The notes under the pieces: generated by a model
What the model saw: only the letters and a program-made list of their open reading frames with translations
Database searches by the model: none
Told to the model about the DNA's origin: nothing
Program-made: the position numbers and the translations under genes
Assembly (NCBI GenBank): GCA_030600555.1
Contig: JAUVLW010000001.1
Span: 6,411 to 70,410 of the forward strand
Length of the DNA stretch: 64,000 nt
DNA from: Candidatus Aenigmatarchaeota archaeon
Lineage (GTDB): Archaea; Aenigmatarchaeota; Aenigmatarchaeia; QMZS01
Direction: 5' to 3'
In this document: positions 2,361 to 33,737 of the stretch, piece by piece
How the letters are laid out: each line of letters begins with the position of its first letter
How positions within the stretch are numbered: the stretch's first letter is position 1

Positions 2361-3083
2361 TTAATCTATTAGAGAATCCAAATATTCTTTTTCAAGGAAA
2401 TGTAGTTTACCGGGGATTATAATAACACAGAGAAAGCAATCCTGATTGAGCAGGTTTTTTATTTTATCATATCTTAAAATTTGTTCACTGCTTCCTGCTT
2501 TGCAAAAAACAACAACTTCAGTTTCTTCTGAAAGAAGATTTTTTTTGAATTTATTTTCCAGCTCAAGCAATATTTTTAACCCTTCACCACAGGTCATAAG
2601 TTTTTCTTTTGTGATATCCAGAAGGAATAATGTGTGCGCATCCTGTTTAAGATTATCTTCAAGTAGATTATAAGGCGCTTCAGAATAATAATAGGATATT
2701 GTTGAGACTTTCCCAAATTTATAAATTTGCAATCCTGTTTCTCCGATTGCGGAAAATATAGAACTTGAATGTATTATTTTTGTTTCAACTCCGGATTTTT
2801 TTGCGTCAAGCAGAATTGAATTATGAGTTGTCGCAATCAGAGAATCTCCGGGAACCAACAAAGCAACATCTTTTTCTTTTGCGGTGTCCAGAATATTATT
2901 GATATTATTTTCTAAATCTTCCCTCTCCACCGTTTCTGCATCAATACCCAGACTTTCTAAATCCCCTTTCCATAAACTTGTGTATCTTTCGATGAGAACT
3001 TTATCGCACTTTTTTGCGGCTTCCAAACCTTTAATAGAAATATCTTTTTCATCCCAGAGACCAATACCAATTAAATATAACAT
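2361..3083 (-). CDS. dph5: diphthine synthase (Dph5)
   Basis: MLYLIGIGLWDEKDISIKGLEAAKKCDKVLIERYTS.. is a tetrapyrrole-methylase-fold diphthine synthase signature, ~240 aa. The start is moved to an internal Met to avoid overlap with the upstream gene. Confidence 0.85.
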   Translation of the reverse strand: MLYLIGIGLWDEKDISIKGLEAAKKCDKVLIERYTSLWKGDLESLGIDAETVEREDLENNINNILDTAKEKDVALLVPGDSLIATTHNSILLDAKKSGVETKIIHSSSIFSAIGETGLQIYKFGKVSTISYYYSEAPYNLLEDNLKQDAHTLFLLDITKEKLMTCGEGLKILLELENKFKKNLLSEETEVVVFCKAGSSEQILRYDKIKNLLNQDCFLCVIIIPGKLHFLEKEYLDSLID

Positions 3084-3084
3084 A

Positions 3085-4209
3085 TCAACACAAAATTTCA
3101 CCTTCTCCGATTACTATTTTAGGATGGGCTCCTAATGAAAAAGGGTCTTCTTTCCACACAATTAAAGACGCGAGTTTATTTTCTTTTATTTCTCCGATTT
3201 CTTTTGCACCAATAATTTCAGCATTCTGTTTGGTTATTATTGAGATGCATTCTGCTTTGCTGAGACCAAAGTATTTGAAGAATCTTAATTGCAAAAATAA
3301 ATTTCTTTGAAGGACTACAGGATGGTCGCTTATCAAACCATATTTTAAATTAGATTTTGCAAGAAGTCCTATATTTTTCCAACTTTCATTTTTTAATTCA
3401 ACTTTAGGCGGGAAGGAATCCACAGGACCATATACCACAGGGAATCCTGAATCTTTGATTATTTTAAATCCTCTTTCTGTGTTTATGTCGCATGCGTGAT
3501 TTATCACAATGTTTTTTAGTTTGAATTCTTTTGCTATTCTAATTATTGCAATTATATCATCTTCTTTATGAACATGAATCATTAATCTTTCTTTGTTTTC
3601 AATTATCCTAATTAAATGTTCAGTTAAATAACCAATTTCTTCGGGTTTCTTTTTTTTCTTTTCAATGAGTTTTTTTGCTTTTACCGCTTCCGATAATTTG
3701 CTTCTCAAAAGATATGCTGCCCCCATTCTTGTATAAGGTCTTGAGCCTTTCCATTCAGTTGTGCTTCTTGGGTTGTAACCAAAAGCCATCTTGATTCCAG
3801 TGTATTTCATAAATGCTTCTTCGGCGTTTTTTGCGTAATTTTTTATTAAGACGCATCGCCCTCCAATTATATTTCCGCTTCCAGGCATTATATTTGAGTA
3901 TAAAATTCCATGCTCAACAGATTCTGAAAATGCTTTGTCTTCAAGATAAATTGAATCCAAAGGGTCTGCAAAAAGGAAAGGTCCCATAGGGTCGTTAGCT
4001 TCATCTTCCTGATAAGGTTCGCCGCTTCTGCATAATCCAATATGGCAATGAGAATCCACAAATGCTGGTGTAACAATTCCTTCACCAATAATTTCGCATT
4101 TTGGTTTTGTTGCGGTAATTTTTTTAATCTTTTTATCAAATATAATATAAACATTTTCTTTTGTGTTTTTTGAACCATCATACAATAATTTCGCTTTTAC
4201 CGCTTTCAT
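3085..4209 (-). CDS. amidohydrolase-family metal-dependent hydrolase
   Basis: PAFVDSHCHIG (an HxH metal-binding motif) near the N-terminus, and a C-terminal Asp-containing segment of the TIM-barrel amidohydrolase superfamily. 374 aa. Confidence 0.65.
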   Translation of the reverse strand: MKAVKAKLLYDGSKNTKENVYIIFDKKIKKITATKPKCEIIGEGIVTPAFVDSHCHIGLCRSGEPYQEDEANDPMGPFLFADPLDSIYLEDKAFSESVEHGILYSNIMPGSGNIIGGRCVLIKNYAKNAEEAFMKYTGIKMAFGYNPRSTTEWKGSRPYTRMGAAYLLRSKLSEAVKAKKLIEKKKKKPEEIGYLTEHLIRIIENKERLMIHVHKEDDIIAIIRIAKEFKLKNIVINHACDINTERGFKIIKDSGFPVVYGPVDSFPPKVELKNESWKNIGLLAKSNLKYGLISDHPVVLQRNLFLQLRFFKYFGLSKAECISIITKQNAEIIGAKEIGEIKENKLASLIVWKEDPFSLGAHPKIVIGEGEILC

Positions 4210-20963: not shown

Positions 20964-21662
20964 TTACAATCTTCTTCCTCTCCTACCCCCTTTCTTCCTC
21001 ATGTATCCATGAATCACTGGAGTTGAATCTTCAATTATGTTTATTTTTAAATCTGACCTTGAAATTGCTTTGATTGCTGATTGGGACCCTTTTCCAACTG
21101 ATGATGATTTATGTCCTCCTGGAGCCCTGATTCTTATATCAACCTCAGTAATTCCTCTTTCCAAAGTTTCTTTTACAACCCTTTGGGCCGCAAGCATTCC
21201 CTGAAATGAAGCGCTTTTTAATCTATCTGCTTTTGTAATCATACCCCCGGAAACTCTAGAGATTGTTTCTGCTCCAGTAATGTCAGTAACATGAAGTATT
21301 GTGTTATTTCCGCTTGAATAAATATGAATTACGCCTTTTTGACTTTCCTGTTTTTTTGGTTTGCTTTTAACTTCTTCAATAACCTCTTTTTTCTCTGATT
21401 TTTGGGTTTTTTTTACATTTTCTTCTGTTTTGACCTCATTTTTAATTTTAACTTTTTCTTCAACTTTAGAATCTTTTTTATATTCAGTTTTAATTTTTTC
21501 TTCTGTTTTGACCTTTTCTATCTCTTTAATTTTAACCTCTTTGGATTCGGTGTTTTCTTTTAAATCAGATTCCGGTTTAGTTTTAATTACTTCTTCTGTT
21601 TTCTCAGCTATTCCCGCTTTTTCATCCATTTTCACTTCGTTATTTTCTTTAGGCATAAACAT
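20964..21662 (-). CDS. rps11: 30S ribosomal protein uS11 with ~100 aa Lys/Glu-rich N-terminal extension
   Basis: C-terminal 130 aa (GVIHIYSSGNNTILHVTDITGAETISRVSGGM...RAPGGHKSS...GGRRGRRL) is canonical uS11. The N-terminal 100 aa are low-complexity K/E repeats. Confidence 0.85.
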   Translation of the reverse strand: MFMPKENNEVKMDEKAGIAEKTEEVIKTKPESDLKENTESKEVKIKEIEKVKTEEKIKTEYKKDSKVEEKVKIKNEVKTEENVKKTQKSEKKEVIEEVKSKPKKQESQKGVIHIYSSGNNTILHVTDITGAETISRVSGGMITKADRLKSASFQGMLAAQRVVKETLERGITEVDIRIRAPGGHKSSSVGKGSQSAIKAISRSDLKINIIEDSTPVIHGYMRKKGGRRGRRL

Positions 21663-21900: not shown

Positions 21901-22305
21901 ATGCCCGAAGTAAATCAGAATGCTTTAGTTGTGCAGGAATTAGTAAGAAGAGCTAATTCACACACGCAAAGATTGAGAACTGTTGATGAACAGATGAGGC
22001 AGATTAATTCCAAACTTAGCAATGAAGAGCAACACAGATTGAAAATGAGTAAATTAAATACTGAAAAATTTGAGAAAATTATAGAAGATCTTGAGGGTAT
22101 TGATAATAAGATAAGCGACCTTAAAAATGAGCTTGTGAAAGTTCATGAAAAAGAAAAAGGTTTTGTAAAAGAAAAAGAAATAAATACAATTAAGAAGGAG
22201 ATGGAATTATTGTCTCCGATGAAACACGAGTTTGTGACCTGGAATGAATTAAACCGGGAAGTTAAAAAATTGAAAGATGAGTTTAAAATTGCCGTTCGGC
22301 CATAA
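21901..22305 (+). CDS. hypothetical coiled-coil protein
   Basis: 134 aa with heptad-rich, K/E-rich sequence. Confidence 0.4.
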   Translation: MPEVNQNALVVQELVRRANSHTQRLRTVDEQMRQINSKLSNEEQHRLKMSKLNTEKFEKIIEDLEGIDNKISDLKNELVKVHEKEKGFVKEKEINTIKKEMELLSPMKHEFVTWNELNREVKKLKDEFKIAVRP

Positions 22306-22315
22306 GGGGGAAGAA

Positions 22316-23053
22316 ATGGGAAGTATTCCGATTAAGGAAGTTACTTTGTTGAGAAAGCAGGGTAAATCTGATAGAGAAGTAATTACCAAATTAAAAGCGC
22401 AGGGATTTTCTTTTCAGGCAATTGAAAAAGCAATGTTGCATGTTTTAAAATCAGGTGTTGGGAATTCAAATGATCCTATCTCACAACCTGGAATGAGACC
22501 TCCTCAGAATTTTGGGCAACCACCTCAGGTAATTCCGCAGCAACCCCCAGGTATGCAACCTCCGCAACAAGGTTCCCCGCAGTTACCGCAAAGAGAGCAG
22601 GTAAATTTTGGAAGGCAGGCTCAGCCAGCCCAGGGAACTCAGGAATTAATGCCAGAACAGAAACTTGGATTTTCCGGCATGCAGGAACCAAGTCTTGAGA
22701 TGCAATCTGAACCAACTGATTTAATAGAAGAAATTGTTGAGGGTGTTGTTGAAGAAAAATTTGAGAAATTGGATACTAAATTTGAATTTATACAAAAAAA
22801 TCAGGAAAAACTAAAAGAAGAAATTGAGGCAATGAAAATTTTGTTGACAAATGAAGTTCAAAAAGTGGAGAAATTAGTTGAGGGGTCCAAAGAAGAAACC
22901 AATAAATTGGATGATGAAATAGAAACAATAGATATTAAATGCGCGGCTCTTGAAAGAGCATTCAAACAATTTTTGCCAGACCTTGCGGAGAAAGTTAGGT
23001 CAAAGACTTTGAAACAACAGGGGGTTGAGGTTGTTAATGAAGAGATGAAATAA
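22316..23053 (+). CDS. hypothetical protein: small N-terminal domain, Pro/Gln-rich linker, C-terminal coiled coil
   Basis: The PPQ/QPP low-complexity block (22480..22640) is followed by an acidic coiled coil. The start is set to the internal Met MGSIPIKE. Confidence 0.4.
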   Translation: MGSIPIKEVTLLRKQGKSDREVITKLKAQGFSFQAIEKAMLHVLKSGVGNSNDPISQPGMRPPQNFGQPPQVIPQQPPGMQPPQQGSPQLPQREQVNFGRQAQPAQGTQELMPEQKLGFSGMQEPSLEMQSEPTDLIEEIVEGVVEEKFEKLDTKFEFIQKNQEKLKEEIEAMKILLTNEVQKVEKLVEGSKEETNKLDDEIETIDIKCAALERAFKQFLPDLAEKVRSKTLKQQGVEVVNEEMK

Positions 23054-23142: not shown

Positions 23143-23466
23143 TTAGTGCTCAATAAATTTCATTTTATATTTCCCTAACAGAATATCATTCCCGCTGTGA
23201 AGTTCAACAGGCCGATAAGAATCCAATTCTTCAGTCATAGAAAAATCCTTGCCATAACGCGTTAATTTAGTTCTGTTTTTAGAATCCAAATCTTCCAGAT
23301 AATAAATTTCATTTTCTGTAAAGATTTCTGCGTGTCTTCCTGAAACAGTTTTTAAAATTTCTTTATTTCCTTTTAGAATTATATCGCAGGTTCCATTTGT
23401 TCCTATAATAACTTTAGCGTAAACATCGTAGATTTTATTATCTTCTAAATCAAATAAGATTGCCAT
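23143..23466 (-). CDS. FHA-domain protein
   Basis: ..ILKGNKEILKTVSGRHAEIFTENEIYYLEDLDSKNRTKL.. matches the FHA core (GR/VSRxHAxI...YxLxDLxSxNGT). 107 aa. Confidence 0.65.
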   Translation of the reverse strand: MAILFDLEDNKIYDVYAKVIIGTNGTCDIILKGNKEILKTVSGRHAEIFTENEIYYLEDLDSKNRTKLTRYGKDFSMTEELDSYRPVELHSGNDILLGKYKMKFIEH

Positions 23467-23553
23467 ATATGATTATTATATAAAAGTAAATATTGCTTAA
23501 AAATAAAACATATCTTGAAAAAGTTTATTATATGAGAATTATCAGAATATATT

Positions 23554-25374
23554 ATGGATTCTATGACTTTAGATGAAGCTATAAATAAATTTAAGAAGTT
23601 TGATAATGATTTACCTGAAAAATTTAGAATCTCCAGGCAGGATATACTTAATGGGGATGTTAAAAAATTAATTAAAGCCTATCGAATATTGGCTATGAAA
23701 TATCACCCAGATAGGAATTCATTACCTGAAGCAGAAGAAAAATTTAAGGAAATGAAGTCAGTTTATGAATTTTTAATAGTGGAAGCTGAATATTACCAAG
23801 AGAAAAAAAAAGTAAGTGATCCAGAAGAAGCAAAAAGAGAAAAATCAAAAGAGAAAAAGACTTACGATGATCAGGATACTTTTGAAGAGAAAATTATTGA
23901 TTTGGAAAAACAACGAGAGCAGGGATCAGTCCAAAAGATAATTAATATGTTAACTGGAAAGTCAACACAAGGAGGCGCAATATCTAAAGGGGAACTCCAG
24001 AAAATAGTAAAAAGAATACGAAGAAAAAAAATCCCTTTGATTAAAGATGAAAAACAACGTTTTGAATATCAAAATAAATTATATTTAATAACAAAAATAT
24101 ATAAATTAATAAAAGGCGGCAGGTTTGATGAAAGTAAATCTTTGGAATGTTTTAATAGGTTAATGGATTTGGAAACCAGCATTGATAATGTTTTGATGGC
24201 TCAGGAATTGGAGGGGATAGAAAAATCACCAATGATAAGACCTGATTATGGAGTGACTTCCGTAATCAAAGAAAGAAAAACTGAAACAGAACCTTCGAAA
24301 GAACCGCTTCAACTTGGACCTGGACCAAAACCCGGAGAATATTCCCCAATTATAAGACCTGATTATACAGGAACTTCAAGACCAAAAGGTGAAGGACCTG
24401 TAATAACACCACCACCAAAAAAACCTCTCCAACTAGGTCCAGAAGTTTCTGAACCCGAACCAAACCCGGAACCCGAGCCAAAAACAAAAAAACAGAAAAC
24501 TAGAGGAACTGGAATTCCCAGAAATCTTTGGATACCTTTATTACAATTCTTCGCATTCATTCTCGGAATTTACCTGCTTTTATTTACTCCTTACTGGATT
24601 TTCGGTTTGCCTTTGGTGATTGCGGGTATTCTGCTTTTAATTGGGGTCCAAAGCGAGAGAGAAGGTTTAAGAGAACTTTTTGATTGGTTCCTGCATGATG
24701 ATACAGGGAATAAATGGGGGATGATTCTTGTGGTTGGAATAGGGAGTTTAATTGTATATTTTCAACTTGGTCCTATAATTGCTGCAATACCCCTTTTAGT
24801 AATATTTACCTATTTCGCGTTTGGAAAAAAAGTTGTTGGTGATGGACATTTTGTTGAATATGTTACTGGACTGAGCGGAGCAACGATTGTATTGTACTAT
24901 TTTTTTGGATATTATGTTGCTGCAATACCTCTTTTGTTGGTGATTATAGCCAAGATATTTGGGAGAACTGCGCTCGGTGAACATTTTACTGAATTTATAA
25001 TGACTGGGACAGGAATTGTTCTTTTCATTGGAGGCGCCCAGTATGCGGCATCTTATCTTTATGTTACTTTTTCATGGCCTTTATTGGTGGGATTTGGTCT
25101 TTTCAATGCAATGCTCTTGATAGCATTATGGTCGATGGAAGAAGGTGGTGGAAATGCAGAAAAAGATAAAGCCGAAACTGAAGAGGCTAGAGCAGCGACA
25201 AAATATTATGAAAGTAAGATGGATAGACAGGATAAAAATTTGGATGAATGGAAGGAAGGTGCTGAGAAAGAAAAATTAAAAACAGAGAAGGAAGTGGCTG
25301 AGGAGGAAAAAAAAGCCGCAAAAGCAAAGACAGATGCTGCAGAAGCGGAAGAAGAAGTTGCTAAAGAAAACTAA
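23554..25374 (+). CDS. membrane-anchored J-domain protein
   Basis: N-terminal J domain with LIKAYRILAMKYHPDRN (HPD motif). Then a K/E-rich segment, two ~38 aa Pro-rich tandem repeats, 8-9 TM helices and a K/E/A-rich C-tail. 606 aa. Confidence 0.65.
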   Translation: MDSMTLDEAINKFKKFDNDLPEKFRISRQDILNGDVKKLIKAYRILAMKYHPDRNSLPEAEEKFKEMKSVYEFLIVEAEYYQEKKKVSDPEEAKREKSKEKKTYDDQDTFEEKIIDLEKQREQGSVQKIINMLTGKSTQGGAISKGELQKIVKRIRRKKIPLIKDEKQRFEYQNKLYLITKIYKLIKGGRFDESKSLECFNRLMDLETSIDNVLMAQELEGIEKSPMIRPDYGVTSVIKERKTETEPSKEPLQLGPGPKPGEYSPIIRPDYTGTSRPKGEGPVITPPPKKPLQLGPEVSEPEPNPEPEPKTKKQKTRGTGIPRNLWIPLLQFFAFILGIYLLLFTPYWIFGLPLVIAGILLLIGVQSEREGLRELFDWFLHDDTGNKWGMILVVGIGSLIVYFQLGPIIAAIPLLVIFTYFAFGKKVVGDGHFVEYVTGLSGATIVLYYFFGYYVAAIPLLLVIIAKIFGRTALGEHFTEFIMTGTGIVLFIGGAQYAASYLYVTFSWPLLVGFGLFNAMLLIALWSMEEGGGNAEKDKAETEEARAATKYYESKMDRQDKNLDEWKEGAEKEKLKTEKEVAEEEKKAAKAKTDAAEAEEEVAKEN

Positions 25375-25524
25375 AATGACAAAAAATAATTCAATTGGGA
25401 AAATCCAAAAAAATGAAGAGATGATGAAAGAAAAAAATTTAGTTGGGAAAAAAACTTTTCAGACAAAATCTGAAAAAATGTTTTGTAAAGAGAAAAATAT
25501 TATATTTGAAAAACACGCGAAAAT

Positions 25525-27324
25525 ATGAAAGGTGGATTTAGACTTGAACCCGGGTATATAATGAAATCCGCGTTATGCGGTTTCCTTATTGCATTTAATA
25601 CAGTCCTGTTCATGAATTATTTCCTTGATATAAATATCTACGGCGGAAGTTTGTTGTGGTTTGGTTTAATAGATGCGGCTCTTATTTTATTAGTTGCTTA
25701 TCCATTTAGAGAAGGCGGCGTAATTGCAATAACAATAATATTTTTGGTTTTTGGGTATGCGCTTTATGGACCTTATGCTGAATATTTAGCCGGACCTGTT
25801 AGCGGAATTAAAGAGAGTATGTCGGATATGCCTGAATTGGCGGAGAAACAAATGCACTGTATGATGTTGATTTTCACAAACCCAATGGCTTACCAGCAGG
25901 AATGCGGACCTGATCAGGAAAAAGTAATTGAAGAGGACCCTGAAGATTTTGGTCTGGAGATTGTAGACTTTGAAGTGCTGCCGGATATTGAAATCTATGC
26001 GAAAATGCCAATACAAATACGAACTGTGCTTGAGAATATGGGTGATTATCCTGCGATTAATGTGATGATAAGCAGCGTTGGTGAAAAATTCAGGAACTGT
26101 GAGGTGGAAGTTCTTAATATCAGCAAGGTTTCCGGGGAATCTATTGATAATTTAAGATTAGGTCAGACGCATCATTATAATATGATGGGTAAAGTAAATG
26201 ATCCTTGGAAAGGAGATGGAGAATGCATTTATGCGCAAAACAAAATGGGGCTTGATGGAACAATAGAGACAACTTGTTCTTATGATTACCAGACCGAATC
26301 TTATCTTGAATTGGAAGCAGTTAGAAATATGAATGAAGTTAAGAAATTTGAAGTTGTTTCTGCAAGGGAAAAAGCCGCCCCAGCAAATGTATTAATGTTC
26401 ACTTTTATTCCTTTGATATGGAAACTTATTGAGGATGGTGAAGAAGGTTCAGTTGAAGGTTACAGGGAAGCAATAATACCAATAAGTTTCCAGAATGAGA
26501 GACAGAAAGATAAAATTGGTTTGAGAGGTGAAAATTTGTATTATACGGTGTATATGGATAATGATCATGAGGCATCTGTTTGGTGCAATGAAGTATGTTC
26601 AGAAGTAAATGAACCTGAATGCATGACGGATTGCCTTGCTAGTTATAGTAAAGAAGATTCTAAACCCCACCATTGCGAAGAGTATGCAACAGGAGAATTG
26701 TTAAAAGGAGTACCTATTGATACTTGCGGCAGTTATAGAGGAGCTCCTAGTTATAATAGTGAAGAATATGTTAGTTGCACAATGAGGGAAGAAATTGCTG
26801 CAAGCGGGGAAGATGATTGCAAGAATAAAACCGGAACTGCAATAACAAACCAAGACGGCAGTTATTGGTTCTGCGCAAATTCTAAAGATAAAAAAATAAG
26901 TATTAAATTTAGCGAGGAACTGGATTGTAAACTTGCCCGAGGCGTGGTAATTTATGAAGTGGAAGGCAATTATAAAAGAGGAAGTGGAGATAAAATCACT
27001 TTATCTATTGTGGGTGAGCAAGCGAAAGAATTTGTGGAATTAAGATGCGATGATTCAATAGAAGTTTCAGAAGATGATGTTGTTAGATGCGATGAGGTGG
27101 ATGGTGAGATTAATCTGGTCTGGTTAAATAATGATCTGGAATTAAAGAAAGGAGAGAAGAGGTTTGTGTATTCAGGTGTGATTATTTCTTTAAATGACTG
27201 GCCTGAAGAATCAACAAAAATGAATTTTGGTGTAAAATCCCACGCAACCTATAGGGTTACGATTACAAAAACAAATACTTTCAAAGTCAATAATCCTTAT
27301 TATACCAGTTCGCCTGTTGATTGA
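25525..27324 (+). CDS. hypothetical membrane protein with large Cys-rich extracytoplasmic domain
   Basis: 3 N-terminal TM helices, then a ~450 aa domain with more than 25 Cys. The stop overlaps the next gene's start (ATGA). Confidence 0.5.
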   Translation: MKGGFRLEPGYIMKSALCGFLIAFNTVLFMNYFLDINIYGGSLLWFGLIDAALILLVAYPFREGGVIAITIIFLVFGYALYGPYAEYLAGPVSGIKESMSDMPELAEKQMHCMMLIFTNPMAYQQECGPDQEKVIEEDPEDFGLEIVDFEVLPDIEIYAKMPIQIRTVLENMGDYPAINVMISSVGEKFRNCEVEVLNISKVSGESIDNLRLGQTHHYNMMGKVNDPWKGDGECIYAQNKMGLDGTIETTCSYDYQTESYLELEAVRNMNEVKKFEVVSAREKAAPANVLMFTFIPLIWKLIEDGEEGSVEGYREAIIPISFQNERQKDKIGLRGENLYYTVYMDNDHEASVWCNEVCSEVNEPECMTDCLASYSKEDSKPHHCEEYATGELLKGVPIDTCGSYRGAPSYNSEEYVSCTMREEIAASGEDDCKNKTGTAITNQDGSYWFCANSKDKKISIKFSEELDCKLARGVVIYEVEGNYKRGSGDKITLSIVGEQAKEFVELRCDDSIEVSEDDVVRCDEVDGEINLVWLNNDLELKKGEKRFVYSGVIISLNDWPEESTKMNFGVKSHATYRVTITKTNTFKVNNPYYTSSPVD

Positions 27325-27356
27325 TATGTTATTTATTATTTTGTAAAAATAAATTT

Positions 27357-27893
27357 ATGGTGACTCAGAAGGAAATTATTGATTTAGTCGAAGGTAATTA
27401 TTCTGCGAAAGTTTACCGAGAATATTCAAATCCACCAACATATATAGAAATGAATGGTGTGGATATATCGCTTTATCCTGAATTTCCATTAAATTTTGGA
27501 TTAAATATATTATATGAAAATTTAGTGGGCTGTCATCTTAAACACCCTAAAACAATAGAACCTGATACAAATTTTAAAGTAAAAGGGATTGATATTGAAG
27601 CGCCTGCAAACTATAGGGTTTTTGTTGAACAAGGAGATTGTTTAAAAGAATTTCTTGATTTAACGGCTGATAAAAGAAATTTATATCCTGTAAAGTATCT
27701 TGAGGGTGAAATAATTGATTTAAAAAAGGAAGAATTTGATGAAGAGAAATTCCTGAAAATTGTTAATTCTTTCCATGAAATAGGAGATATGGTACTTAAG
27801 ATGGACGAAAGAAAAGAAGCTGAAGAAAAAGAAGAACGCAAGTGGAGGCAGAAACATAATTTTGGAAAGTATGAATCTTGGCTAAAAGAGTAA
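27357..27893 (+). CDS. hypothetical protein
   Basis: About 180 aa. Translationally coupled to the upstream gene. The internal Met MVTQKEI is taken as the start. Confidence 0.4.
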   Translation: MVTQKEIIDLVEGNYSAKVYREYSNPPTYIEMNGVDISLYPEFPLNFGLNILYENLVGCHLKHPKTIEPDTNFKVKGIDIEAPANYRVFVEQGDCLKEFLDLTADKRNLYPVKYLEGEIIDLKKEEFDEEKFLKIVNSFHEIGDMVLKMDERKEAEEKEERKWRQKHNFGKYESWLKE

Positions 27894-31151: not shown

Positions 31152-33737
31152 CTATTTTACAATAACCCCTTCCGCAGAACTTAAATTAATTTCTCTGTAG
31201 ATAACAGGTCTCTCAGTTGAACTTAATATTTCACCCCTCCATTTTTCATCTGTTAACCTGTCGTCCATAGGCCATGCGAATTCATAGTAACTAAAAATTG
31301 GACCTACTGCAATTCCAATCCTTCCATCTTTTGCTTTATGCGCAACAACAATCCAGTCAACTTTTCCGGTTCCAACCTCAAGGACTTTCTTTGTATTTGA
31401 TTCTGTGTGAACATCCGCAATCATGCTTGTTTTAAAAGCCTCATCTTTTCCTTCAAGAACTGTTTTTTTAGTGCATTGTTTTCCAACAGGGCATCCTCCT
31501 GATTGTATTTCCAAAGCGGACGCAAGATTTTCAAGTATTGAATCAAATCTTGAATTAATAGATTTTATATAATCATAATCTTCTTCTGTTAAATTTTCCG
31601 CTTTCAGTTCTTTCTCGGAAATTATTCTCAATTTTTCCATCATTTCAGAACTTTGCTCAAGGGAACTTCGGACTTCGTCAGTTATAATCTCTTGTTCACC
31701 TAGTCCTTGTTTAAGGAAATCAATGGCGTATTTTGCTCTTGCAAATAATTCGGGGTTTGGTTCAACATAACCATAATATTTTGCTTCAATTGGATCTGGC
31801 ATTGAAGTGATTCCAAGTGCGGTTGCCCAAGTATAACTTTGCTTTACATACAAAATTGTGTCATGTCTTAATTCAGCCCAGCTTGACAAACTTGTAATTA
31901 AATCCTTTAATTTCCAGGTTTCATTTCTCATCCAGTTTGGATATCCTTCAGGTTTCTCTTTCAGAACCGGTTGTAACATCCAGAGCCAGGTATTATATAA
32001 ATTCTTTGTCCACATTTCTTCGGAGTATGAATCTATAAGGGTTCTTAGTTCATACTGTTTTTTATCATAACCGCAGTATCCATTATTATAATATTCATTT
32101 AGTGTCTGTTCTGCTTTTTTAGAACCCAGAATATTTATAACATCCAATCCTGTTGGCATAAATCTGCACACAGAATATAATTGAGATTCATTTAATCCCC
32201 CGCAAAATCCGGCGGTATGCATTTCCAATGCTTTGCTGCAGACTTCATTCCAGTACTTTGTGCGGTCTTCATCCATATAAGTGCATGTGGTATAGAATCC
32301 TTTTGGTTTTGAAAGTTTTGAATAAGTTGATTCGCAGTCCAGAACTTTTTGGTAATACGGCGATTTTACATTAGGTCCAACATTTTTGTAAACCAAATCC
32401 CCAAGTATTTGAGAATCAATTGCGTATCTTTGCCCGATTAATCTTAAACCCTGCGTCAGTTCTTTTAGGTTTCCTGCAAGGTCGATTTCAAATCCCCCGA
32501 GAATTTTCGGACCTTCTGAGTTATTTAGTTCTTTCTGTATTTTTTTTGCGACATTTACTGTAAGAGTCATTTCTTCATCAAATTCATAACCATAAACTTT
32601 TTTTATAGCTTCGTCATAATCATAAAAAGTAAAGTCATCCGATACTCCGGCAAAGAAACTTGTTATTGAATATATCTTGTTGTAGATTTCTGAAGCCGGA
32701 TAAATTTTTCCTTCAAATTTAACTTCTGCTGATTTTACTGCATCGGTCAATAGAATTGCCTGTTTTGTCCAACCATCCCCTCTTGTTTTAAAAGTAATTC
32801 TTCCAAGCCACATCATTGATTTGAAATATTGTTTTAGTCCTTCTGAACTCGTGTAATGACCTCTTGGAACATATTGCGAATAATCTTCACAGTAACATTC
32901 TCTTGTGCAGATTTCACTGTAAAATTCAACAGAGTCCCATTCTTTTCCCTGATAAAATATTTTTCCGCCTTTTATCTCCTGGCTGCATTTTTCATTTTCC
33001 CATTTAGGAAAAGCGAGCCTTAAGCATTCATCTGGGCAGTCTTTACTCATGATTTCAGATTTGAAAAATCCTTCATGCTTTTCTATTCTATCAAGTTCTT
33101 TGTTCACATCATCTGCGACAAAATAAGTGACTACATAATTAGGGTCGAGCAGTTTCATTGCAACGCTCAGGTAAGCAATATTTCTTTTTGAAAGTTCTTT
33201 TAGTTCTCCATCTTCAAACCCATTGTATTGCCTCATGGATTCTTTTATCAAAGATTTTAAAAATTCTTTTAACATTGGGGATAATTTTTTAATTTCAAGA
33301 TTCTTGAGAATCTCATTAAATTCAAGGTGGAATAAATGCAATATTGAATCTGAGGTTATAAATACAGGTATGTCTTTTTGGTTGAGGTTTAAATAAGCAT
33401 GTTCAAATCGGTCATATTCAGTTCCAGATAAAATTATGGCTCCATTATTTAGTAAAGTCTGTATTTGTTCTTCGCTTAGATTATTTCCAAATCTTTCAAC
33501 TAAATCTCTTTGGTAATTTTCCGGCAATTCTGTTAAAGGCAATTCATATTCGGAATTGTTATAAGTTTCAGGCGTATATTCATAATCTGACAGGAACATT
33601 GAAAGTCTTGGTTGTGGGATTGCGCCTGAGGAATAAACCGATTCTTTTTCACCCAGCACCGTCGGAGGGTTTGTGTAATAAAAAACTGTATAAATCGCCA
33701 CCAGAATAACTAAGGTGATTATAATTAGTTTTTTCAT
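31152..33737 (-). CDS. large secreted/extracytoplasmic protein, Cys-rich, unknown function
   Basis: 861 aa with an N-terminal signal/anchor helix and many Cys. No catalytic motif recognised. Confidence 0.5.
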   Translation of the reverse strand: MKKLIIITLVILVAIYTVFYYTNPPTVLGEKESVYSSGAIPQPRLSMFLSDYEYTPETYNNSEYELPLTELPENYQRDLVERFGNNLSEEQIQTLLNNGAIILSGTEYDRFEHAYLNLNQKDIPVFITSDSILHLFHLEFNEILKNLEIKKLSPMLKEFLKSLIKESMRQYNGFEDGELKELSKRNIAYLSVAMKLLDPNYVVTYFVADDVNKELDRIEKHEGFFKSEIMSKDCPDECLRLAFPKWENEKCSQEIKGGKIFYQGKEWDSVEFYSEICTRECYCEDYSQYVPRGHYTSSEGLKQYFKSMMWLGRITFKTRGDGWTKQAILLTDAVKSAEVKFEGKIYPASEIYNKIYSITSFFAGVSDDFTFYDYDEAIKKVYGYEFDEEMTLTVNVAKKIQKELNNSEGPKILGGFEIDLAGNLKELTQGLRLIGQRYAIDSQILGDLVYKNVGPNVKSPYYQKVLDCESTYSKLSKPKGFYTTCTYMDEDRTKYWNEVCSKALEMHTAGFCGGLNESQLYSVCRFMPTGLDVINILGSKKAEQTLNEYYNNGYCGYDKKQYELRTLIDSYSEEMWTKNLYNTWLWMLQPVLKEKPEGYPNWMRNETWKLKDLITSLSSWAELRHDTILYVKQSYTWATALGITSMPDPIEAKYYGYVEPNPELFARAKYAIDFLKQGLGEQEIITDEVRSSLEQSSEMMEKLRIISEKELKAENLTEEDYDYIKSINSRFDSILENLASALEIQSGGCPVGKQCTKKTVLEGKDEAFKTSMIADVHTESNTKKVLEVGTGKVDWIVVAHKAKDGRIGIAVGPIFSYYEFAWPMDDRLTDEKWRGEILSSTERPVIYREINLSSAEGVIVK

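Follow-up and report, generated by a model that had tools for sequence, protein, structure and literature searches.

Does a small forkhead-associated (FHA) protein that is encoded back to back with a membrane J-domain protein belong to that protein, and what would such a pair be doing in the envelope of an archaeon? The question is raised by positions 23143-27893 of a 64,000-nucleotide stretch (hereafter the window) of contig JAUVLW010000001.1 in GenBank assembly GCA_030600555.1, which has a GC content of about 33% throughout and whose source, a DPANN archaeon of the Aenigmatarchaeota, is tiny and probably symbiotic. A first-pass annotation had described four open reading frames (ORFs) here and joined them in one proteostasis or signalling module; all four were recovered as described by ORF translation. 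We put at roughly 55% the probability that the locus is an Aenigmatarchaeota-specific envelope operon in which a J-domain head would recruit Hsp70 and the FHA protein would be its dedicated partner. In what follows, WIN denotes the window's locus, L-numbers the loci of relatives and P-numbers the proteins of relatives; forms with the J domain are called J-plus and forms lacking it J-minus.

Both domains on which the question turns were recovered above their Pfam cut-offs in profile searches, and the failure of profile support that the first-pass annotation named as grounds for refutation did not occur. The FHA-only protein (107 aa, 23143-23466, - strand) matches FHA (PF00498) with E=5e-12 and 46.5 bits against a cut-off of 20.7, over profile positions 1-67 of 67. 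Its closest sequence-level matches are FhaB/FipA, TagH, OdhI/GarA and ArnA, all at the domain level and far under the family cut-offs; the same holds for the NCBIfam FhaB, TagH and OdhI models (TagH: 9.5e-6, 25.7 bits against a cut-off of 120). Divergently transcribed from it, as had been reported, is the 606-aa ORF 23554-25374 (+ strand), in which the J domain (residues 1-85, 23554-23808) matches DnaJ (PF00226) with E=3e-11 and 43.7 bits against a cut-off of 27.8 and carries the HPD motif at residues 51-53. The motif is kept in all five J-plus orthologues (P0001-P0005, of which P0001 is a database entry identical to the window's protein). The J domain is under purifying selection, with a ratio of nonsynonymous to synonymous substitution rates (dN/dS) of 0.21-0.28, and AlphaFold2 (AF2) models this part with a predicted local distance difference test score (pLDDT) of 75-80. 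The protein as a whole is rare, with only six relatives among 5.8 billion clusters.

Features of class A or class B DnaJ proteins (G/F region, Zn-finger PF00684, C-terminal PF01556) were not found in the 606-aa protein, PF00226 being the sole match of this kind. The NCBIfam DnaJ, CbpA and TopJ models match the J domain only, the first two at 36-40 bits against cut-offs of 338-403 and TopJ at 6e-9 and 35 bits against a cut-off of 300. Because only PF00226 was found, and because all three NCBIfam models match nothing outside the J domain and score far under their cut-offs, the protein is classified from its sequence as a class-C J-domain protein outside the DnaJ, CbpA and TopJ families.

Between the J domain and the membrane lies a cytosolic linker (residues 86-321, 23809-24516, + strand; delimited by sequence, tblastn and alignment), which consists of a K/E-rich stretch, a helical region at about residues 145-222 and two Pro-rich repeats at residues 226-305. 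The helical region is shared with J-minus relatives (tblastn of residues 148-214 to the upstream gene of L008/L009). The Pro-rich tandem repeats of the first-pass annotation are present as two imperfect copies of about 39 aa (PMIRPDYGVTS...PLQLGP and PIIRPDYTGTS...PLQLGP), which hold a PDY(T/G)xTS motif; Tandem Repeats Finder misses the diverged repeat at the DNA level. The membrane domain follows (residues 322-530, 24517-25143, + strand; hydropathy, AF2 and phmmer). It was first credited with about nine transmembrane (TM) helices; hydropathy and AF2 give eight of them and one short amphipathic helix, within residues 326-529. This 8-TM domain is built of repeated 2-TM hairpins, is 66-98% identical among close relatives and is under purifying selection as judged by dN/dS. 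The K/E/A-rich cytosolic tail had been read correctly (residues 531-606 and stop codon, 25144-25374, + strand) and is modelled by AF2 as a long helix at residues 535-605. Charged tails resembling it occur also in distant orthologues.

The FHA gene and the J domain come and go together. An FHA gene or its remnant was found at the same divergent position in every J-plus lineage (WIN, L001, L003, L004 and L022/L024) and in none of the seven J-minus loci, and FHA homologues were found in the window's clade only and at no position other than this one beside the J gene. The AT-rich intergenic region of 87 bp that separates the two genes (23467-23553) is highly conserved among J-plus loci, with long invariant blocks in a five-locus DNA alignment, and presumably carries back-to-back promoters. 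In two J-minus proteins the TM domain closely matches that of J-plus proteins (84% identity for P0006, 97.7% for P0007) and the N-terminus is unrelated to theirs, with a Zn-ribbon in P0007; neither matches DnaJ, and no FHA gene lies upstream of either gene. In the window the FHA gene stands between the second of two overlapping coiled-coil genes (134 aa and 258 aa, 21901-22305 and 22277-23053, + strand; assigned by synteny in relatives) and the J gene, and in J-minus relatives these coiled-coil genes lie directly upstream of the 8-TM gene. At L021 only about 150 bp separate the end of the 258-aa coiled-coil gene from the J-minus TM gene, so there is no room for an FHA gene, and at L020 a gap of 420 bp has no FHA similarity.

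The boundary of the exchange is sharp. DNA identity between J-minus and J-plus loci is found only from TM1 onward (94% for L021 against L004, 82% for L020 against L001), and the breakpoints lie 0-5 codons from the IPLLQF motif that opens TM1. J-plus and J-minus forms occur together in one metagenome; a metagenome scan yielded only one new locus. Because J-minus forms are interleaved with J-plus forms by TM-domain identity, at least two independent swaps have moved the FHA gene and the J head together. Comparison of this handful of metagenomic sequences shows that one exchangeable cassette, present in one narrow clade only, comprises the FHA gene together with the entire cytosolic N-terminus and its J domain, and at the sequence level the joint gain and loss is real evidence that the FHA protein and the J N-terminus belong together. 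As a separate observation, three extra genes (L001 7540-9456; a YgjP/SprT-like metallopeptidase and two unknowns) lie between the coiled-coil pair and the FHA gene in L001, where the FHA gene still adjoins the J gene despite the insertion; the J-minus locus L020 also has a YgjP-like gene.

The cassette is attached to a pair of genes that is found far beyond this clade. The second member of the pair is the gene for a 3-TM protein with a Cys-rich ectodomain (599 aa, 25525-27324, + strand; supported by hydropathy, AF2 and orthologues). Its 15 orthologues (39-73% identity) are all from Aenigmatarchaeota and represent at least nine species (nine GTDB species representatives). At the distant loci (L005-L009 and L013-L018) the gene directly upstream encodes, in its C-terminal half, a homologue of the 8-TM domain with its charged tail (phmmer 8e-12), and its stop codon overlaps or abuts the start of the Cys-rich gene, or a coupling small ORF (sORF) intervenes. 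These upstream homologues have no DnaJ match, and no FHA gene is found near them. The coupled pair of 8-TM and 3-TM ectodomain proteins was seen in WIN, L001, L003, L004, L006, L008, L014-L018 and L024. These loci show that the conserved old core is an 8-TM protein followed by a 3-TM ectodomain protein, most members of which lack both the J domain and the FHA gene. Because this pair is older and is found across the Aenigmatarchaeota without J or FHA, the four genes of the first-pass annotation do not make up one module.

In the window the two core genes are joined by a conserved sORF of 50 codons (25376-25528, + strand), Lys-rich and without TM helices, that had been overlooked. It begins 2 nt past the J-gene stop, and its own stop overlaps the Cys-rich ATG as ATGA. 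The frame is open and conserved in L001, L003, L004, L012, L008 and L013, and the sORF is called as a gene in L008, L021 and L024. Its coding constraint is weak (dN/dS 0.36-0.81), and its probable role is translational coupling. Because distant relatives have the Cys-rich start overlapped by the 8-TM gene directly, the sORF may be derived from a frameshifted tail.

For the Cys-rich protein, the three TM helices first described are confirmed and are N-terminal; the Cys count (more than 25) and the domain size (about 450 aa) given with them are replaced by 18 Cys, 17 of them in the ectodomain, and an ectodomain of about 515 aa. The ectodomain comprises a helical segment, beta-sandwich domains and a variable Cys-rich insert that is absent in some orthologues; AF2 gives a pLDDT of 85-90 for residues 320-580, which cover beta-sandwich domains and the helical Cys-rich insert. 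The gene is under purifying selection (dN/dS). No Pfam, NCBIfam or PDB sequence match was obtained, and Foldseek against the PDB with the model returned only generic, local beta-sandwich matches. An exhaustive profile search found about 65 remote relatives of the N-terminal module (TM helices, GY..GPY and TNP.EY motifs and the first sandwich), inside proteins of 500-1900 aa. Cell-wall hydrolase domains (SLT, CHAP, M23 or amidase) are present in four of the eight long relatives scanned, with Aenigmatarchaeota among the sources. Because remote relatives of its N-terminal module are found in such long hydrolase-bearing proteins, the Cys-rich protein is assigned, on sequence similarity, to a DPANN-centred superfamily of membrane-anchored surface proteins, and this hints at a role in the envelope or in cell contact. 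The hydrolase-bearing paralogues include P0053, P0062, P0065, P0066, P0085 and L019 3424-5568 (SLT, CHAP, M23, Amidase_2); the Aenigmatarchaeota label that several of them bear is odd, since such archaea lack murein. That these long paralogues might join the 8-TM domain to the ectodomain module, as a Rosetta-stone fusion, was considered and rejected, as the TM profile finds none.

The last of the four genes, here called D, encodes a soluble protein of 178 aa of unknown fold (27357-27893, + strand; relatives' gene calls). Its orientation, like that of the Cys-rich gene, is as first described. The stop/start overlap reported between the two genes is not upheld: it needs a non-conserved TTG at 27321, and this start was rejected because the frame upstream of the conserved ATG holds stop codons in three relatives, whose gene calls begin at that ATG. 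The real start is the ATG at 27357, 32 nt past the Cys-rich stop. Gene D (dN/dS 0.29-0.45; no Pfam or PDB match) is limited to the subclade of WIN, L001, L003 and L010/L011 and is absent from the J-plus loci L004 and L024. In the distant relatives (L005-L009, L013-L018) ScpB (PF04079) is always next after the Cys-rich gene, a position held in the window's clade by the unrelated D and/or by FttA; no ScpB-like sequence was found within the 64-kb window. That D might be a divergent ScpB was rejected (hhalign probability 0.3%, no Pfam match). In the preferred reading D is a later, subclade-specific addition to the locus. The first-pass expectation that the neighbourhood would be conserved in relatives is thus borne out for the neighbourhood itself, with FHA and J gained and lost together, but not for D, which is confined to a subclade, nor for the four genes as a set, since the core pair occurs without J and FHA.

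In the reading that we prefer, the 8-TM protein, with its long cytosolic N-terminal region and charged cytosolic tail, is translated in tandem with the 3-TM protein via the short coupling ORF. The 3-TM protein would display its disulfide-rich beta-sandwich ectodomain of about 515 aa at the cell surface, and the two proteins would probably form one membrane complex for cell-surface or host contact. The J head may recruit the cell's Hsp70 (DnaK) to the cytosolic face of that complex for assembly, remodelling or client handling. Membrane-anchored class-C J proteins such as DjlA, DjlB and DjlC bring Hsp70 to the membrane (PMC8215388), and many DPANN archaea have the full DnaK/DnaJ/GrpE system (PMC8204110), which is common in mesophilic Aenigmarchaeota metagenome-assembled genomes (MAGs) and absent from thermal ones (PMC8407114). 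The FHA protein would be a dedicated binding partner or modulator of the J N-terminal region, with the conserved Thr/Ser-containing Pro-rich segment PDYTGTSRPK as a plausible target. Its binding may be phospho-independent or otherwise atypical, because the canonical phosphate-binding Arg is missing.

Several observations weigh against this reading, and they begin with the FHA protein itself. In an alignment of the six family members with the reference FHA domains of Rad53, GarA and Chk2 (GarA and ArnA stretches taken from database matches), the hallmarks G22, S42, H45 and N64 are kept. The set of residues of the phosphothreonine-binding loops (Gly-Arg in beta3-4, Ser-x-x-His in beta4-5, Asn in beta6-7) is incomplete: where the canonical phosphate-binding Arg is expected, 6/6 members have Thr (T23), and Gly follows Ser42 in 5/6. 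Because the phosphate-contacting Arg is an invariant Thr, a role as phosphothreonine reader, as the first-pass annotation had proposed, is doubtful. Secondly, the FHA gene looks like a pseudogene in the P0003 lineage (L022 1795-2070 and L024 1698-1973, - strand), with ATG changed to ATA, a frameshift near codon 13, and S42L, H45P and G98R. The decayed sequence is identical in two independent assemblies (L022, L024) and the neighbouring J protein is intact, so the FHA protein is dispensable in at least one lineage. Thirdly, the 64-kb window yielded no signature of Hsp70, of GrpE, of a Hanks-type or RIO kinase or of PP2C (DnaK and PknB query sequences; Hsp70, RIO and PP2C motifs), in agreement with the earlier statement that no DnaK, GrpE or Ser/Thr kinase is visible nearby; the syntenic 20-kb regions of relatives gave none either. 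The AF2 model of the whole 8-TM protein is poor (pLDDT 51, predicted template modelling score 0.22), too poor for a structure search. Finally, the FHA gene physically adjoins the J-coding 5' end, and joint gain or loss is not proof of a functional tie, because adjacency permits single recombination events.

The last of these points leads to the alternative that survives best, which we consider rather unlikely: the FHA gene and the J 5' segment may co-travel by mere adjacency in a recombination-prone region, with the FHA protein having other targets or being lost and the J protein not regulated by it. Breakpoints exactly at TM1 and replacement of the whole upstream segment in J-minus variants agree with this, as do the missing FHA Arg and the FHA pseudogene beside an intact J protein in L022/L024. 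In L004 the place of the coiled-coil genes, immediately upstream of FHA, is taken by a DDE transposase fragment (3-560, + strand; Pfam DDE_Tnp_1, 2e-15), which fits with a region prone to recombination. However, the FHA gene is under strong purifying selection in the other lineages (dN/dS 0.13-0.24) and evolves more slowly than the J, Cys-rich and D genes, the shared intergenic region is highly conserved, and the homologues were found only in the window's clade and only at this position.

A more specific proposal, for which we see a limited chance, takes the cytosolic head of a conserved DPANN envelope complex as a plug-in adaptor that strains swap by recombination at the TM1 boundary; one such adaptor would be a two-component unit, not described before, of a membrane J domain and a dedicated Arg-less FHA protein. 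This unit would harness Hsp70 for a machine of the cell surface or of host contact, with an FHA control that is phospho-independent or non-canonical.

Whether there is an Hsp70 to recruit bears on a further alternative, in which the organism lacks Hsp70 and the J-like N-terminus is a helical interaction or adaptor domain, one of several interchangeable heads, others of which carry Zn-ribbons. The heads are indeed interchangeable, with a Zn-ribbon in P0007 and an unrelated head in P0006, and Hsp70 is absent from thermal-habitat Aenigmarchaeota MAGs (PMC8407114) as well as from the window. But purifying selection has kept the HPD motif and the residues of helices II/III strictly unchanged, which is hard to explain without an Hsp70 partner, and DnaK is common in the mesophilic members of the group; an orphan J domain is therefore distinctly unlikely.

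Equally doubtful is a host-contact or secretion-like envelope machine in which the FHA protein would be a phospho-independent cytosolic scaffold, like the FHA-like domains of YscD/PrgH of the type III, EssC of the type VII and TagH of the type VI secretion system (T6SS), and not a J-specific regulator. A weak Yop-YscD_cpl match of the FHA protein (2.6e-4), its TagH match and the remote homologues of the Cys-rich N-terminal module in proteins of 500-1900 aa with SLT, CHAP, M23 or amidase domains point in that direction. Yet no secretion ATPase or other secretion-system genes were found in the window or in the relatives' loci, the FHA protein cannot be a general scaffold as it is absent from most members of the core family, and the 8-TM profile does not match the hydrolase-fused paralogues. 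Nor does the locus belong to a T6SS circuit of TagH with PpkA-PppA: the TagH score is far below its cut-off, and T6SS, kinase and phosphatase genes were not found in the window or the syntenic loci. The module of four genes first proposed, in which a Ser/Thr kinase would mark the J protein or its clients, the FHA protein would read the phosphothreonine and so control Hsp70 recruitment, and the Cys-rich and downstream genes would be integral, can claim real FHA and J domains, the conserved Thr/Ser in PDYTGTSRPK of J-plus proteins and the kept S42, H45 and N64 of the binding site, but is very improbable given an FHA family without the phosphate-contacting Arg, no kinase or phosphatase in the window or the syntenic 20-kb regions, a Cys-rich partner that long predates J and FHA, a gene D missing from the J-plus, FHA-plus loci L004 and L024, and no stop/start coupling of D to the Cys-rich gene.

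By analogy, the closest functional counterparts of the envelope operon that we prefer would be DjlA and DjlB/DjlC with HscC, the CbpA-CbpM pair, and the FHA regulators TagH, FhaA/FipA and ArnA. In E. coli DjlA and in DjlB/DjlC, as in the window's protein, an HPD J domain is the sole DnaJ-like part and is tethered to the cytoplasmic membrane; these proteins are presumed to deliver Hsp70 to clients at the membrane (PMC8215388). In DjlA a single TM helix is N-terminal and the J domain C-terminal, and DjlB/DjlC are tail-anchored, whereas the window's J domain is N-terminal to an 8-TM domain, is an optional cassette on an archaeal-specific family and is accompanied by an FHA gene. The djlB and djlC genes have hscC nearby; the window's locus has no Hsp70 gene nearby. 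The likeness to CbpA-CbpM would be one of function only, namely that the gene for a J protein has as its neighbour one for a small protein, a possible binding partner and modulator of the J protein (the complex of CbpM with the J domain is mentioned in PMC8215388). Unlike the FHA protein, CbpM is not an FHA domain and is co-transcribed, not divergent, and CbpA is a soluble class B protein.

Mycoplasma TopJ, like the window's protein, belongs to an organism with a reduced genome and has its J domain at the N-terminus, ahead of low-complexity regions that are charged and Pro-rich. It combines a J domain with an acidic/Pro-rich region and is needed for the attachment organelle. The TopJ match covers the J domain only, however, and TopJ, which lacks an FHA partner, is no polytopic membrane protein. 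Sec63/ERdj of eukaryotes is, like the window's protein, a polytopic membrane protein with a J domain; through this domain Hsp70 is coupled to a membrane complex, as is predicted for the window's protein. In Sec63 the J domain is luminal, in the loop that connects TM2 with TM3, and its partner at the translocon is BiP; the TM parts are not homologous, and topology and domain of life differ. In the T6SS (Fha1/TagH with PpkA/PppA), in mycobacteria (FhaA-MviN and FipA(FhaB)) and in Sulfolobus (ArnA/ArnB), membrane complexes are acted on by FHA proteins that are small or stand alone. These systems have cognate Hanks kinases and phosphatases and keep the FHA Arg, whereas the window's FHA protein has Thr and the window has no kinase or phosphatase.

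The surroundings of the locus are those of a housekeeping region, with genes for a Rrp42-like RNase PH, ribosomal protein S11 and FttA/aCPSF1 (Pfam scan). Database proteins identical or nearly so to those encoded here bear the label Candidatus Aenigmarchaeota/Aenigmatarchaeota, which marks the source as a DPANN archaeon. The coiled-coil pair (134 aa and about 240-260 aa) is kept in L001, L003, L005/6, L008/9, L015, L017 and L018, that is, in most loci having upstream sequence, with L007 and L016 left out. In L015 a copy of the C-terminal coiled coil of the 258-aa protein is joined to a truncated AAA ATPase (2734-3963; Pfam AAA 2e-12) with the motif 'KPNVKWEDIGGL...GPPGCGKS', resembling Vps4-type AAAs. 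Ribosomal protein S11 (20964-21662, - strand) has 232 aa, with the S11 domain at residues 110-228 behind a K/E-rich N-terminal extension of about 109 aa; it measures 198-238 aa in close relatives against 129-168 aa in distant Aenigmatarchaeota. Charged low-complexity expansions seem typical of the window's clade, and the J linker and the tail of the TM protein are further examples. In L001, L003, L004 and L012 a DUF3160 (PF11369) gene of 859-861 aa follows the locus at a distance of a few kb downstream; the window's 861-aa ORF at 31152-33737 (- strand) is syntenic with it. One tRNA is the sole Rfam match in the window. PADLOC returned no defence-model match for the FHA protein, the J protein, the sORF, the Cys-rich protein or D, and membership in an anti-phage defence system was rejected on this ground. 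PDB sequence searches with the FHA protein (single sequence), D, the 258-aa coiled-coil protein and the Cys-rich profile gave nothing useful.

Judged from its sequence, the locus is a real, lineage-restricted variant built from known domain types, with a function that is predicted. What appears to be new is a class-C membrane J protein with a putative dedicated small FHA partner; no report of an FHA-J pairing was found in the literature searched. DPANN archaea rely on surface contact with their hosts, and almost no envelope protein of theirs has been characterised. The locus defines a phylum-specific pair of membrane proteins, and near-identical strains swap the cytosolic head of one member of the pair. 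The finding rests on few metagenomic sequences from one narrow clade and the function is a predicted one, so that its broader impact is as yet limited. If the J/FHA head does recruit Hsp70, the 8-TM protein would be the first polytopic archaeal membrane J protein with its own small partner, and the locus would offer a handle on how reduced archaea assemble or regulate their surface machinery.

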